Counted from the first letter of the whole stretch, positions 1 through 64,000 are shown. The stretch: DNA of 64,000 bases, filler included, from Stramenopiles sp. TOSAG23-6 (GCA_900128565.1; 22 parts of 22 records of this genome joined end to end with filler, not necessarily neighbours in it); one strand, 5' to 3'. Notes: generated from the letters alone by a model not told the origin. Numbers and translations are program-made.

Positions 1-92
1 TTTTTTTTTACAAAAAAATCGAATTTATTTTTCGTACGAAATTTTGTACCTAACATTTTTTTTTTTTTTTTGAAATATTTTCTAAAATACAA

Positions 93-1395
93 AGTCGTGT
101 CTTTCAGTTTGTGAAAATTATGAGTTAGATTATGTGGATGGGCGATCCGCTTTCTTCCTTCCTGGTTTGAGACAAAAAATTATTAATGTGGCTGATTTTC
201 GTGGAGGTGGTGGATGGGAAACGCTTCGTGAAGGTGGAGAATTTATTAAACAGCAGCTTGTATGTTTTATTTTTTTTTTAAACAAAAAATCGATTTTTTT
301 TTCGTACCAAATTTTGTACCTAACGATTTTTTTTTGAAATATTTTTTCATCATACTTGCTTTGGGTGGTCATTGTTACGTTCATTGTAAGGCAGGTAAAG
401 GCAGATCTGTGATAATGGTAATGGCCTTCTTGATGGACTTCGCTGGAGGTTCAATGTTACCTTTAGATGCATACGAAGCCGTTGTTGCACATAGACCTCA
501 AATAAATCCAGATACATTTCTATCTCATACAAAAGTACGAGAAATACACGAATACTGGTTATGCCATGTAATGAAACAACCCCTCAATAAAGAGTCAAAA
601 TCATGTATGTTTTATTTTTTTTTTACAAAAAAATCGAATTTGTTTTTTTATAGGAAATTTTGTACCTAACGATTTTTTTTTTGAAATATTTTTCCAAAAA
701 TCATGGATTATAAAAGTAATGGGAAGCTCGGGAGCCCTGTCTGGTATATCAAGTTTGTTTGGTATGAAACGTGGGGGTAGTGGTTACTTAAAATGCAGAG
801 ATAAACTCTATATTTTATACGGCGGCACAGAAAAAGCTAAAGAGATTGCTCGAGAAGTGAATGACAAAAAAAATTGTATGTACGTTTTCAAAATTGATTT
901 TTTACCTATATTTTTGTTTCGTACGAAATTTCGTACCTAACGAATTTTTAAAGCCAAAAAAAAATTATTTTTTCACAATACATGCTAACTACTGGAGTCG
1001 TAAGTTTTCGAGCTGATGATATTTGTCGTAGATTCAAGCAGGCAAAAATAGAAATGGTAGATTGTCGATCTTGCTATGAGAAGTTATTCAAAGTAGAAAG
1101 AAATCAGAGTGGTCATATAGACAAGATTTTAGGATTTTGTGTCGAAGAATTTGCTCAAAAAATGGAACATCAAAAAAAATCATCAATGACATCAAAAAAG
1201 GAAACTTTAAATAATTTTTCGACTACTACAAATAATACCAAGAACGCGGGAGAGGATGTCAGCATTCAGCAAAGTCGAAATTCCATAGGTACGGATTCAA
1301 TTTCGAATTTACCACCTGCTCCTCCATCTATTCAAAATGTCATAGAAACTTCATCGGACCAAGTTTTGCCAAATTTTGAATTCAATGAATTATGA
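93..1395 (+). CDS. Dual-specificity phosphatase (PTPMT1-like) with C-terminal extension, 5'-partial; exons ~93-259, 358-604, 705-879, 984-1395
   Basis: Catalytic loop VHCKAGKGRS. Removing family introns 260-357, 605-704 and 880-983 gives one frame (FIKQQL|ALGGHCYVHC). Confidence 0.8.
260..357 (+). mobile_element. Introner-family intron, GT...TT
   Basis: CTT|GTATGT..GTACCTAAC..CATAC-TT|GCT. Removal restores typical DSP spacing before VHC; TT is duplicated at both junctions. Confidence 0.8.
605..704 (+). mobile_element. Introner-family intron, GT...AT
   Basis: TCAT|GTATGT..TACCTAAC..AAAATCAT|GG restores the frame into the 719 ORF; AAAATCATG occurs at both junctions. Confidence 0.75.
880..983 (+). 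mobile_element. Introner-family intron, GT...AT
   Basis: AT|GTACGT..GTACGAAATTTCGTACCTAAC..CAATACAT|G joins the 719 and 982 ORFs. Confidence 0.75.
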
Positions 1396-1683
1396 AGAAA
1401 TATTTCAAACAAATTGATTTTTCCAACACAAAATTTTCTAAAAAATAATAATGCAGTCATTTAGAAAAGCCAAGAAGTCAGATAAATGGATGATATAATA
1501 ATTGAATGAAGAATATTTATTATAATAAATGCATGAATTGTACAATACAATATAGTATTATTTCATCTGAAGCAATTTTTTGATACAATACAGTATTATT
1601 TCATCTGAAGCATTTTTTTGGTTAATTGTATAACTTTAATTGTATTCTATCATTCTATTCATAGAGCCAATACGTATATATGT

Positions 1684-2775
1684 TTAAAATTCGTCACTTG
1701 TGTTTCCATCATTTCCATCTGACAACATCGAATCATCCATAGACTGCATTTGTTGATGATGTGACTCCGTTGGGGGTTCCGAATATTTTCTACCAACACT
1801 TGCCAGCATTCGATGTTTTTTTCGAACTCTTGTTGAGGTTGACAAAGTTTCGCGAAAAACATTCTTTCTATTATTTCTATTTTGCTGCGGTTGACTCTGT
1901 GATTGGGATGATCCTCCATCCAAGTAAGAGAGTATATGTATTTTGAAAAATATTTCAAAAAATTCTTAAAAAAATTGTTAGGTACAAAATTTCGTACGAA
2001 AATAAAATTGGNANTTNAAAAAAAANAAAANCATATATTCGAATCTACATTGTGTTGATTTGTATAACTACTGTGTGAAACTGTATCCTGTTGCTTAATT
2101 GAGTGGTCTGCTACAAAATGGCTTAGTACAATATTACTGTTGTTATCTTCAACTTCGGATTCTTCTGAATTTTCAACAAATTCATCATTATCTACTAATT
2201 GCTTTGAATTATTGATGGTATTATTATTATCTAATGAGTTTGACCTTTGATTCGATGTTCCCACTTGATACGTGTCATTATATCTTGAAGAACCTGATCT
2301 TGTTTCTATTGACGTTTCATTTGTTTCAGCAGCACGTTTATGATGAAAGACTCTAGAATCATTCGCATCATTATAAAATCTTTTATTATTATTCTCGTCA
2401 TTGTTTTCTATTTGATCACTCTTTTGTTCACTAGACACTCGTTGGTTCTGTTGCTCGTGTTCATAATTATTACTATAATTATTATTCCTCGAAAGTCCAA
2501 CAAATGAATTTTCTTGATAATTATTATTACTCGAAAGTCCAACAAATGAATTTTCTTGATAATTTTCCTTTGAAATCCTACTTGAATAATTACTGTTTTG
2601 TTGACGTGATGATTTGGTAGCATTTGCTTGATTTCGTGTTGAGCTTCGATTTGATACATTTTTCATTGCAGTATTTTCATTTTCATATGCTGCACATGTG
2701 GAAATAATTAATTCAGCTGAGAATAATTCACTTGGCCGAGAATGGATTCCGGCGTATGATCCCGGTGTTGTCGTA
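1684..2775 (-). CDS. Hypothetical Asn/Ser-rich protein, 5'-partial; exons 2775-2037, 1935-1684
   Basis: Open frames joined across family intron 1936-2036 (AT...AT). Confidence 0.55.
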
Positions 2776-2834
2776 ATATATTTTGGAAAAATATTTCAAA
2801 AAAAAAAAACTTAAATTTGTTAGGTACAAAATTT

Positions 2835-61238: not shown

Positions 61239-62042
61239 GGTGATGGTGATGGTGATGCTCCTCCAGCAGTAGAAGAAGAAGAAGAAGAAGAAGATGATGC
61301 TGGTGATGGTGATGCTGGTGATGGTCATGAAGAAGTAGTTAATTTATTACTTGCTGGTGTTGGTGCTATAACTGTTGCTAAGTCTGGTGAAAGTGGACAC
61401 ACACCCCTTACGCATGATAATGATTCCAAAAACAATGCTGGTGCTGGTGCTGATGGTGGTACTACACATGATGGTGGTACTGGTGCTCACGATGATTCCA
61501 GAGAAGAAGAAGAAGCAGCACCTGAACCAGCAGCACCAGACCCAGCACCTGGACCAGCAGACCACCCAGCACCTGGACCAGCAGACCACCCAGCACCTGG
61601 ACCAGCAGACCACCCAATCATGAAAGAAAATGATCATTATGAAATACTCGGCGTTGAACCAACGGCAACTTGATCCGAGATAAGGAAAGCTTGGCGTAAG
61701 TTAATTAAAAAACATCACCCTGATAAAGGTGGAGATAAGGAAATATTCAAAAAGGTTCAAGAAGCTTATGAAGTTCTATGTGACGAAGAAAAAAGAAGCA
61801 AGTATGATGAAAAGAAAAAAGAAAAGGAGGCTTTAATAAAGTTCTTTAATCAAATTCATGGCAGTGAATGGAACGAAAACAATATAGATATTTGTAAATT
61901 GCAAGAAGCCTCCTGTGATTTAAAAGGTCGCGTTATAGTGTTGGAATTGAATGACAACAACCTAACTGGTTCAATTCCAAAAGAAATTCGTCAACTAAAA
62001 CTCAAATATTTTCATTCTTATGGTAACGAAAAATTATCATAA
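61239..62042 (+). pseudogene. Acidic/Pro-rich + DnaJ + LRR-cap/LRR protein with an in-frame TGA at 61671-61673
   Basis: [33 protein letters not shown]..; [20 protein letters not shown]. Confidence 0.6.
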
Positions 62043-62371
62043 ATGTCCGCAGGGACACTTGAAGACGACAACGTGCGATGGAATAACAAACTGCCAAAAT
62101 GCAAAAGTAGAAAATTGTAGTATACTTTTTACTTGTCCGGTTGTCCAAAAAAAAAAAAATTATAAAATGATTCAATTTCGATTTATTATTATTATTTTTC
62201 GAGATTTTGATTTTGATTTTTGATTTGATTGATATTTCGTGTGCCAGTGCCAAAAAAAATCGTATCTTGTTTTCATTCACATTCATTATTCATTCAAGAT
62301 TCAATTCAAAAAGAAGAGAGCCTGTAAAAAAATAGCTAAAAAGTAAAACGTCTTTACAACATAATTCTATA

Positions 62372-63948
62372 ATGAGTCATGTTACAACCAATAGTACCCA
62401 CTCAATGGGACCATATACACTCTATTCTGTATCACCATGTCCTTCATTAGGTGATTATTGGCTTTTAGATGCAGTACGAGGCGAAGTACGTAGAAATTTT
62501 CGTAATTTACGTGAGGCGTTTCTTTCAATAGGTTGTAATAATCGTCGTGGTTTTATAACAAAAGAAGACTTACATCCACAACTTTTACGATGGAATTTAC
62601 CATCCATAAATGATGATAAAGTACATACCAATAAACGTGCAATTGATGTCTTTCTATCAGCTTTGGATGTTCGTCAAGATAATCAAATAAGTTTTAACGA
62701 TTTTACGCGAGCCATGAGACTTCCAGGCTCAGGTACAGTGCATACTCTATCAAATGACGAATATATTACAAGTAATGCTCTTATGAATGCAAATGCAGGT
62801 GCATTACTTGATAAAAGTCGTGAAGAAGACAAAAAAAAACTAAATGCTATTGAAAAAGTAGAAAAAAAATGGCATGAAATATGGCGTTCGCAATGGCGTG
62901 AAAAAATCCATGAGCAAAAAAAATCTCTTCAAAAAAATAATAAACATACTAAACATACTAAAAAAAATACTAAAAAAAATACTAAACATACTAAACATAC
63001 AAGAAACAATACTACATGTCCAACATATAATCAATATGAAATATCTGATGATTATATAGACAATGAAGAATTGTTTCTGAATGCTGTTGAGAATGATTTG
63101 AAAATATCCAAAAGTTTTGATAAAACACGAAATATTCATAGTTTTGATAAAACACGAAATATTCATAGTTCTATGATTGAAACATCTCCAAATTTGTCAT
63201 TAGACAATTTATCTACAGTTTCATTTGTATCAAGTAATGAGTCTTTATCAACATCATCATTTGATTCCTCTTTGGTGACGTCATCATCTACATCATCAGA
63301 ATCAGATTTGTTATCGGATTCGTTAAGTACAAAATTTGGTACGAATTCTTTAAAAAAAGTAAAAAAATCAAAAAAAGTAAAAAAATCAAAAAAATCTAAA
63401 AAATCTAAAAAAAANTCAAAAAAATCAAAAAAGAAAATCATATCTAAACACCACAACAACACAATGTGCAGAATCATATCGCAATTTGATCCATGCGATT
63501 TCAAGAAAACGTGAAAAGTTGTACGTAAACGAAATAATTTTTTTTTTTTTTTTTTTACGAAATTTTTTACCTAACGATTTTTTTTACTAAAAACAAAATA
63601 TATATGTTTCACAATACATAAAACTCAAAAAAGAAATTGAGGAAAAAAAGTTAGATGAAGCAAGTAAAAATTTAGCTATTTTTATGGATGGATTTAAAAA
63701 AGGTGAAGAAAGTTTGTACGTTTTGAATATTTCCCAAAAAAAAAAAAAAAAAAAAAAAAAAAAAATTTAAAAAAAAATTTTTTCCCAAAAAAAAAAAAAA
63801 AAAAAAAAAAAAAAAAATCTAAAAATATGTTTTCACAATATTGGATCCATCAATAGAAAATATTGATCATAACTTATCAACCATAATTCGACCCATTGCA
63901 GATTTTGCCATGGACTCGGGTGTTACCGATGTTAAATCAAAGGGACAT
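62372..63948 (+). CDS. EF-hand-like protein, multi-exon, 3'-partial; apparent frameshift at n 63415
   Basis: LREAFLSI..GFITKEDL, LDVRQDNQISFNDF; downstream exons between family introns. Confidence 0.6.
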
Positions 63949-64000
63949 GTATGTTTTATTTTTTTTCAAATTCGATTTTTTTTTCGTACGAAATTTTGTA

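Follow-up and report, generated by a model that had tools for sequence, protein, structure and literature searches.

How a gene is restored when its introns lack the 3′ AG, which is among the most conserved eukaryotic signals, is the question raised by a repeat family in a stretch of DNA from Stramenopiles sp. TOSAG23-6 (GCA_900128565.1). The stretch, here called the window, is 64,000 nt long and is made up of 22 contigs, each of ~2.8 kb, joined by N linkers; it has 32% GC, and many of its contigs break inside the element under study. An earlier reading of this DNA, made from its sequence alone (the sequence-only reading), described about 70 sense-oriented copies of a ~90–110 nt element and proposed that they are introns, mostly without a 3′ AG, that are removed from conserved genes. 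We propose, with a probability of roughly three in four, that these elements are introners whose acceptor is made by a target-site duplication (TSD) and that they are removed by a U2-type spliceosome with a relaxed need for G at the last intron position, i.e., G(−1).

A loose search for the core of the element returned 96 matches, including reverse reads of the palindromic core, compared with 0–5 in 20 shuffles. After filtering for orientation 71 cores remained, 48 of them inside 43 complete elements and 23 outside, mostly in fragments at contig ends. With core-less and truncated copies included the total is ~70 elements, or a few fewer once a duplicated contig (23438–26260 equals 26361–29183, identical except for a base or two at the start) and an intron of the ASD gene that was assembled twice are subtracted, in agreement with the number first reported. 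Our curated set holds 45 complete elements, 43 of them with a core, and is the basis of the end, donor and duplication counts given below; all 45 lie sense to the modelled gene. Complete copies measure 89–223 nt with a median of 104 nt, so that the size given earlier describes the typical copy and not the range. Their consensus opens with RTAYGTTTT, continues through a T-rich spacer to AAATTTYGTACCTAAC and closes with TTTTCMMAATAY plus two bases; its RTAYGT is a donor of the yeast kind, and its GTACCTAAC, almost invariant, resembles a branch motif. The core is much better conserved than the spacers, with CCTAA present in 41–42 of 42 copies and its last A located 33–52 nt from the intron end in 39 of 42. 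The best pairwise identity between the 45 complete copies is 0.67–0.92 with homopolymers trimmed. Similar introns are therefore found at unrelated positions, which is the repetition that defines introners, and thousands of contigs from one metagenome match as well. Element patterns found no match in viral contigs, and in metagenome contigs the long element pattern had no match and the short pattern matched one locus.

The length that has to be removed can be read from conserved genes, and we compared five of these with their homologues: ASCC3, ASD, a conserved unknown gene, a PAP2 phosphatase and a cation channel. For ASCC3, every donor/acceptor pair near each junction was scored on a profile of 120 homologues. 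At intron 1 (17827–17924, + strand) the top pair is GT..AT with 122.1 bits, whereas the best GT-AG pair scores 88.7 and deletes six residues; at intron 2 (19317–19408, + strand) GT..AC scores 94.6 bits, against 41.8 for the best GT-AG pair, which causes a frameshift. Intron 1 also fixes the register of the junction, because the upstream exon ends in TC and the acceptor is AT, and because a shift of two bases replaces the junction Arg, a residue present in 120 of 120 homologues. The conserved unknown gene aligns gap-free to its homologue P0247 over 253 residues and across two GT..AT junctions on the + strand (41200–41294 and 41755–41854), where the best GT-AG pairs lose 2 and 5 residues, respectively. 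The PAP2 phosphatase is gap-free to homologue P0244 across three of its first four junctions (53493–53581, 53305–53406, 53064–53157 and 52946–53059, all GT..AT on the − strand); at 53493–53581 GT..AT scores 1007 and the best GT-AG pair 571. Its conserved frame requires a 4-nt microexon, GTAT, at 53060–53063 (− strand) between two elements (score 1007 with the microexon and 895 without it). In the channel gene, the exon before the long GT..AT intron at 45926–46148 (+ strand) ends at position 122 of the Ion_trans (Pfam) profile, and the next exon resumes the profile at 124 after one split codon.

For ASD, GT..AT is again preferred (130.2 bits versus 47.0 for the best GT-AG pair), and this join restores SGAGAAAMAELEQQ. 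Here homology bears out the earlier claim, with the correction that a single contig (5869–6848) carries exon 1 on its − strand and exon 2 on its + strand, with the 5′ part of intron 1 at 6226–6351 (− strand, donor at 6351) and its 3′ part at 5869–5974 (+ strand, ending in AT and followed by exon 2). This contig is a mis-join or an amplification chimera through the repeat, and the join that was scored crosses the mis-assembly. Taken over ASCC3 (two junctions), ASD, the unknown gene (two junctions), PAP2 and the channel, homology supports the non-AG ends that had been proposed, and the six junctions which had been quoted at single loci have the sequence given for them. Beyond ASCC3 and the channel, these are the first intron of a dual-specificity phosphatase gene (260–357, + strand, GT..TT), the eIF4G intron (52324–52431, + strand, GT..AT), which has just 8 nt of downstream exon, and an intron of a SPRY-domain gene (13911–14020, − strand, GT..AT), in which an internal AG past the branch is skipped. 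This SPRY-domain gene is stop-free across five AT-ending introns on the − strand, with the others at 12077–12220, 12615–12757 (two-core), 12862–13005 and 14332–14426, all with GT donors and the last of them with GTAAGT. The phosphatase model is likewise stop-free through three + strand introns, with GT..AT introns at 605–704 and 880–983 after the first, which precedes the exon encoding DSPc.

A frame-blind test used positions −16 to −3 alone to call each end. These calls match the curated ends in 37 of 43 cases, and 32 of the 35 testable junctions (those with at least 30 nt downstream) keep the frame open. A rule that takes the first AG past the branch as the intron end was tried and rejected, since it keeps the frame in 16 of 37 cases, not above chance; an AG occurs between branch and end in 13 of 42 introns.

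The last dinucleotides of the 45 introns are AT (30), AG (6), TT (4), GT (2), AA (1), AC (1) and CT (1), i.e., 9 ends are neither AT nor AG, and the two-thirds AT and about five AG estimated earlier are close to these counts. The AG expected at a U2-type 3′ splice site is thus present in 6 of 45. The introns have a pyrimidine at −3 in 43 of 45, A at −2 in 38 and T at −1 in 37; the last triplet is CAT in 20 and TAT in 9. In spliceosome structures, docking of the 3′ site involves G(−1) contacting G(+1), A(−2) contacting the branch A, and a pyrimidine at position −3. Set against these contacts, the counts point mainly to loss of the G(+1)–G(−1) contact. The proposal of AG-independent removal from conserved genes thus holds in so far as homology and reading frames are concerned, and it needs narrowing, in that what is lost is mainly G(−1), with A(−2) kept in 38 of 45. 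The six AG-ending copies are not significantly older than the rest (3′ body, p = 0.15; length, p = 0.09).

The sequence-only reading offered no cause for these ends. We find that they tend to duplicate the last dinucleotide of the upstream exon: the two are identical at 26 of 45 junctions compared with 18.9 expected (p = 0.0009), and at 25 of 40 when five junctions that lose the frame are set aside (p = 0.0002). This comparison of exon end and acceptor is the TSD test of PMC9860276. The duplication is specific to the locus, with exon end/acceptor pairs of TT/TT at 260, GT/GT at 4089 (intron 4089–4182, + strand, GT..GT), AC/AC at 19317, CT/CT at 23698 (intron 23607–23698, − strand, AT..CT, with its duplicate at 26530–26621) and AT/AT at 22 sites, and the non-AT matches number 4 where 0.93 are expected (p = 0.006). 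The excess is limited to −1 and −2, with none at −3 (14 matches versus 14.4 expected) or beyond. A further copy, in contig L001, is AT/AT, and its host frame is open once the copy is removed. At 27 of 45 sites AT closes the upstream exon (background 9.7%), and at 41 of 45 the last exon base is T. We therefore regard the acceptor as the probable 2-bp TSD of an introner with a preference for AT. We also asked if frame failures are tied to lost duplications, and the association is not significant (4 of 5 versus 15 of 40, p = 0.15).

A duplication of this kind leaves room for placing the true borders two bases upstream, which would make most of these introns AT...AC (NT-GTAYG...ATAC) and yield the same mRNA wherever the duplication is perfect. 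The two registers are indistinguishable at 26 of 45 junctions, ASD and ASCC3 intron 2 score alike in both, T is the last exon base almost throughout, and the PAP2 junction at 53157 scores better when shifted. At ASCC3 intron 1, in contrast, the shifted register would turn Asp-Arg into Glu-Cys, at the Arg shared by every homologue, and it is the unshifted register in which the RTAYGT logo forms a textbook donor. In addition, the exon end before the channel intron at 45604–45722 (+ strand, GT..AG; exon end AT, acceptor CAG) encodes a terminal His that aligns with Cav channels, at weak E-values. We consider the shifted borders unlikely.

Which machinery would recognize such introns is suggested by their other signals. 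The donor is GT in 43 of 45 copies and AT in 2, with T at +2 and A at +3 in 45 of 45, G at +5 in 40 and T at +6 in 43. The window contains a U6 snRNA gene (36060–36163, − strand), which is context and no element, whose ACAGAGA box is intact and to which the GTAYGT consensus is complementary, as expected of GT donors recognized by U1 and U6; the stretch just 5′ of the box departs from the Rfam consensus (an inserted U, and CG to AU). U2 introns of the Saccharomyces type have a GTATGT donor, a strong TACTAAC branch some 30–50 nt from the end, and a YAG acceptor. The introns described here resemble these in their GTAYGT-type donor and in a strong branch motif at a similar distance, and differ in the motif itself, with 58 occurrences of TACCTAAC in the window and 3 of TACTAAC. 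CTAAC lies within this motif, but an extra C is present (TACCTAAC), which we predict to be bulged or else matched by a changed U2.

Some of the same traits, namely G or A at +1, conserved T at +7 to +9, a highly conserved branch motif and loose 3′ ends, are also those of U12-type introns, and a transformed minor spliceosome that tolerates varied last dinucleotides has a precedent in Physarum polycephalum. The U12 introns of this species have a proposed transposon origin, a loose last dinucleotide including GT-AT, which makes up 17% of non-canonical U12 introns, and an altered branch motif with a co-evolved snRNA (10.1101/2020.10.12.336362), and minor introns are retained in some stramenopiles (PMC10639083). 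The Physarum introns differ, however, in having a RTATCYTT donor, a branch 9–12 nt from the end rather than the 33–52 nt seen here, and non-canonical ends in 0.8% of introns (10.1101/2020.10.12.336362). Positions +5/+6 of the present introns are GT and not the CC of a RTATCCTT donor, GTATCCTT, for that donor, and TCCTTAAC, for the TTCCTTRAC branch, occur 0 times in the window, and the canonical U6 present is complementary to the donor. Splicing by a minor spliceosome is therefore unlikely.

Excision guided by structure, in the manner of euglenids and diplonemids, would place the cuts by pairing of the intron ends. Positions +1 to +3 are indeed able to pair with −3 to −5 in 41, 42 and 38 of 45 copies, G-U pairs included, and several copies fold their ends together. 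This pairing ends after 3–4 bp, folding is weak (−4.7 to −18.6 kcal/mol in the 7 copies folded), and neither the extensive end pairing nor the lack of a conserved GT that marks such introns is seen here. In many copies the core hairpin is disrupted, whereas 41–42 of 42 retain the linear CCTAA, and donor and branch motifs look spliceosomal, so that we regard a non-spliceosomal mechanism as very unlikely. A conserved hairpin before the branch was also considered as a requirement of the element and rejected, its outer pair being intact in 17 of 42 copies.

Sequencing runs bear on whether the elements leave DNA or RNA. Part of 49638–55260 is matched by 17 runs, and four of these (X7, X10, X11 and X1) were compared on 49638–52439. 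The DNA run X1, a metagenome, carries scattered single-nucleotide differences from the window and retains the donor, body and TT end of the intron at 49840–49930 (− strand, GT..TT) in a Sds3-like gene, i.e., both of its ends are seen in a second DNA data set; X1 contigs also run from the eIF4G exon into the eIF4G intron. No exact-excision joint is found among the X1 joints listed for 49638–52439. The summed depth of the element in X1 is ~104,000 versus 8–9 on unique sequence, which fits thousands of copies, although such depth is not a copy number. In the poly(A) run X11 the summed depths are 37 and 2–4, and the element-to-exon ratio falls from ~12,000 in X1 to ~10 in X11, a weak comparison of summed contig depths. 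This depletion lends weak support to removal at the RNA level.

These data also address the readings in which the elements are excised from DNA, in the manner of internal eliminated sequences, or in which mistakes of assembly or sequencing within T-rich repeats produced the non-AG ends. The assembly is fragmented, with mis-joins through the repeat at ASD and PAP2, and no RNA contig among those listed bridges a junction. The strict sense orientation and the strand-asymmetric donor and branch motifs are unexpected under DNA excision, as is the intron retained in X1 with its TT end and without an exact-excision joint among those listed, and errors would not yield ends that copy the local exon end. 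Either of these is most unlikely.

The mechanism that we favor, TSD-made acceptors removed by a relaxed U2-type spliceosome, would run as follows. A non-autonomous DNA transposon, the introner, would have seeded most introns of this stramenopile; the element, RTAYGTTTT...AAATTTYGTACCTAAC...TTTTCMMAATAC, would insert after NT, mostly AT, and duplicate those two bases. In the sense orientation the insertion would bring a U1/U6-type donor and a branch site, presumably including the branch adenosine, and the right-hand duplicate would serve as the acceptor, so that splicing would restore the gene exactly. The U2-type spliceosome would have relaxed its need for G(−1), with Y-A at −3/−2 still favored, and would cut two bases past the U-rich TTTTCMMAATAC end and not by scanning to the first AG. 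We infer splicing, since none of the RNA contigs listed spans a junction. Going further, a single family may have replaced essentially the whole intron complement while the major spliceosome co-evolved with it, with U2 pairing to GUACCUAAC, the 3′ site taken from the element end and the last dinucleotide almost unread, G(+1) being kept; we hold this extension tentatively, as a possibility somewhat below even odds. The corresponding stretch of U2 is predicted to read GUAGGUAC instead of GUAGUA. A co-evolved snRNA, U1, is on record for Entamoeba (10.1101/2022.06.08.495308). If the extension is true, the result would be a naturally occurring spliceosome that uses a normal donor yet lacks the G(+1)–G(−1) contact.

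Several observations weigh against the TSD-made acceptor and its spliceosomal removal. In the DNA, 19 of 45 ends differ from the end of the upstream exon; these comprise six AG ends, of which four follow an exon that ends in AT and are one substitution away from AT, some probable chimeras and real cases, and the other non-copying ends need later mutation or gene conversion, e.g., TC/AT at ASCC3 intron 1. The element has no terminal inverted repeat (TIR) of at least 6 nt, with only 3–4 bp at its ends, and no transposase was seen; TIRs are also missing from many accepted introner families (PMC9860276). U1, U2, U5, U2AF and Prp8 are not in the window. Five of 45 rule-based junctions lose the frame, i.e., those at 5514 (5416–5514, − strand, a degenerate GT..AT element whose frame is not open through the modelled downstream exon), 38168 (38168–38262, + strand, GT..AT, with a doubtful frame and a possible mis-join), 39482 (39482–39580, + strand, GT..AT, where the rule junction gives a stop and a mis-join is possible), 52880 (52772–52880, − strand, a probable chimera of two elements, between which the homologue shows that a whole PAP2 exon is missing) and 63716 (63716–63841, + strand, core-less, where an end one base further gives TT, equal to the exon end). 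The automatic call was corrected manually at six of 43 ends, and two core-less introns were likewise positioned manually; because of these eight the figure of 40 open frames in 45 is partly circular, so that the frame-blind 32 of 35 should be used. In PAP2, both homologues are one residue shorter at 53406 and favor an end 3 nt later (1029 versus 1007), and at 53157 a shift by 2 nt, to an upstream register that is still GT..AT, scores slightly higher (1017 versus 1007). In RNA, no contig bridging a junction is among the records listed for the three RNA runs, in which exon contigs are 150–230 nt; the non-poly(A) runs X7 and X10 show a DNA-like excess of the element, thousands of times deeper than exons, and the poly(A) run X11 still contains some element contigs. 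The excess in X7 and X10 may stem from carried-over DNA, from pre-mRNA or from excised introns that are stable.

The statement that this is not a described system was too strong, since TSD-made YAY ends are published for Fritillaria and more than 60% non-canonical introns for Amoebophrya. In Fritillaria, transposon-derived introns have YAY 3′ ends made by the TSD, with YAY on both sides, U2AF is duplicated, and 3′AT is the commonest end (44% in F. pellucida and 34% in F. borealis; PMC13326754); miniature inverted-repeat transposable elements (MITEs) there give rise to AG-AC and AG-AT introns (PMC11282704). The likeness to the present family would thus extend to a MITE origin, a TSD-made 3′ end, a YAY triplet, 3′AT as the commonest end, and a U2 spliceosome with conserved U6 (PMC13326754, PMC11282704). 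In F. borealis, however, the donors, too, are altered (AG/AC, AG/AT) and very diverse and the repeat is a triplet, whereas here we find an RTAYGT donor, one dominant family, a 2-bp duplication, a long non-standard branch motif and a stramenopile host. The last triplet is YAT or YAC in 30 of 45 copies, but the exon repeat spans two bases and not three, and non-GT donors, expected to dominate in introns of the Fritillaria type, are 2 of 45 here. In the introner IE1 of Micromonas pusilla, the element carries the 5′ splice site and a 3-nt TSD supplies an AG 3′ site, giving canonical introns (reviewed in PMC11282704). The present family shares with IE1 an element-borne 5′ site, a TSD-supplied 3′ site and exact restoration of the mRNA, and differs in that its target is mostly AT and AG has been dropped. 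The system therefore works like Fritillaria and Micromonas in having an acceptor supplied by the TSD, and it is outside the Fritillaria class because its donors stay GT and its repeat is two bases; its origin is apparently independent of Fritillaria. In Amoebophrya, the non-GT-AG introns include repeated families with direct and inverted repeats (PMC7789003), with no dominant dinucleotide at either end, inverted repeats of 8–20 nt and no U1 found, whereas here donor and branch are sharply defined.

No dominant GT-AT introner family and no such stramenopile introns are reported in the literature that we covered, which includes few subscription papers, and the species tables of introner surveys could list this lineage; term searches in three papers on uncultured stramenopile and protist genomes found nothing on unusual splice sites. 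The present introns stand apart by their lineage, by keeping a canonical donor, by the dominance of a single family and by a changed branch motif. Published genome-wide exceptions to the 3′ AG mostly alter both intron ends (Fritillaria borealis, Amoebophrya and euglenozoans), and here the acceptor alone is released, which lets one ask separately how exons are ligated in the absence of G(−1) and whether this demands a change in U2AF1, Prp8 or U2. It also suggests how an introner that targets a non-AG site may sweep a genome, with 3′AT arising independently in a tunicate and a stramenopile. Gene predictors built on GT-AG would mis-annotate this lineage, and the repeat accounts for its fragmented, mis-joined assembly.

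The host itself falls within the stramenopiles, outside the ochrophyte group, in a tree built from ASCC3 exon 2 together with 48 of the 120 homologues (support 100/100), in which it is sister to two EukProt models and groups weakly with the Cafeteria clade (84/88). On the basis of this one gene it would be a non-ochrophyte stramenopile, probably MAST-like. The public DNA runs that best match the window are seawater metagenomes and small runs. A same-species protein was not found for ASCC3, ASD or the conserved unknown gene in a search limited to the longer proteins (best identities 70%, 82% and 79%), so that none of them supplied a transcript-derived junction.

The remaining copies illustrate the variety within the family. 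Five copies have two tandem branch cores, i.e., those on the − strand at 7985–8143 (GT..AG), 8241–8402 (GT..AT), 12615–12757, 48547–48681 (GT..TT, end placed by frame) and 55600–55775 (GT..AT, in an RRM gene), and this arrangement suggests internal duplication or nested insertion. Further AG-ending introns are two degenerate copies with the branch core at 7492–7614 (−) and 39682–39825 (+), one in a methyltransferase-like gene (42608–42700, −) and one at 47686–47859 (−), all with GT donors. A second AT donor is found at 1936–2036 (−, AT..AT), and GT..AA at 7671–7816 (−). A glycosyltransferase gene contains a GT..TT intron (39981–40071, +), and the channel gene two further GT..AT introns on the + strand (44881–45051, which is degenerate, and 45382–45492). 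GT..AT introns also occur at 48378–48477 (−), 48840–48942 (−), 57866–57977 (+, end placed by frame) and 63521–63619 (+), and a degenerate copy at 58448–58550 (+, GT..AT) stands outside the 45, where an AG 5 nt upstream shifts the frame. Introns at 47033 (46916–47033, −, GT..AT, core-less, end placed by frame), 49142 (−) and 61049 (+) have GTAGG donors and no clear core, and are possibly older or a second class. Degenerate cores outside modelled coding exons lie at 33950–34100 (−), 35108–35220 (−) and 37560–37640 (+), apparently in untranslated regions and sense to the nearest gene; an intergenic palindrome at 34225–34300 is similar to the element core, and a core match at 63330, antisense in coding sequence, was taken as chance.

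The window has further features besides these copies. The contig at 29284–32095 has no introns, is more GC-balanced and, unlike the other contigs, encodes Gly/Ser/Thr-rich repeats on the − strand, its product may be a surface or viral-type repeat protein, or the contig a contaminant. ASD (6354–6848, −) is of a type common to labyrinthulids, choanoflagellates and Planctomycetes (70–82% identity), a possible old transfer. A DnaJ-like open reading frame near the start of the last contig has an in-frame stop at 61670–61690 and is a pseudogene or an error. Intergenic DNA, introns and even coding sequence contain repeated occurrences of a telomere-like motif, ACCCTAACCCT / AGGGTTAGGGT, for example at 5008–5230, 16585–16600, 44555–44585, 44770–44790 and 54170–54185, and also near 2280 in contig L001.

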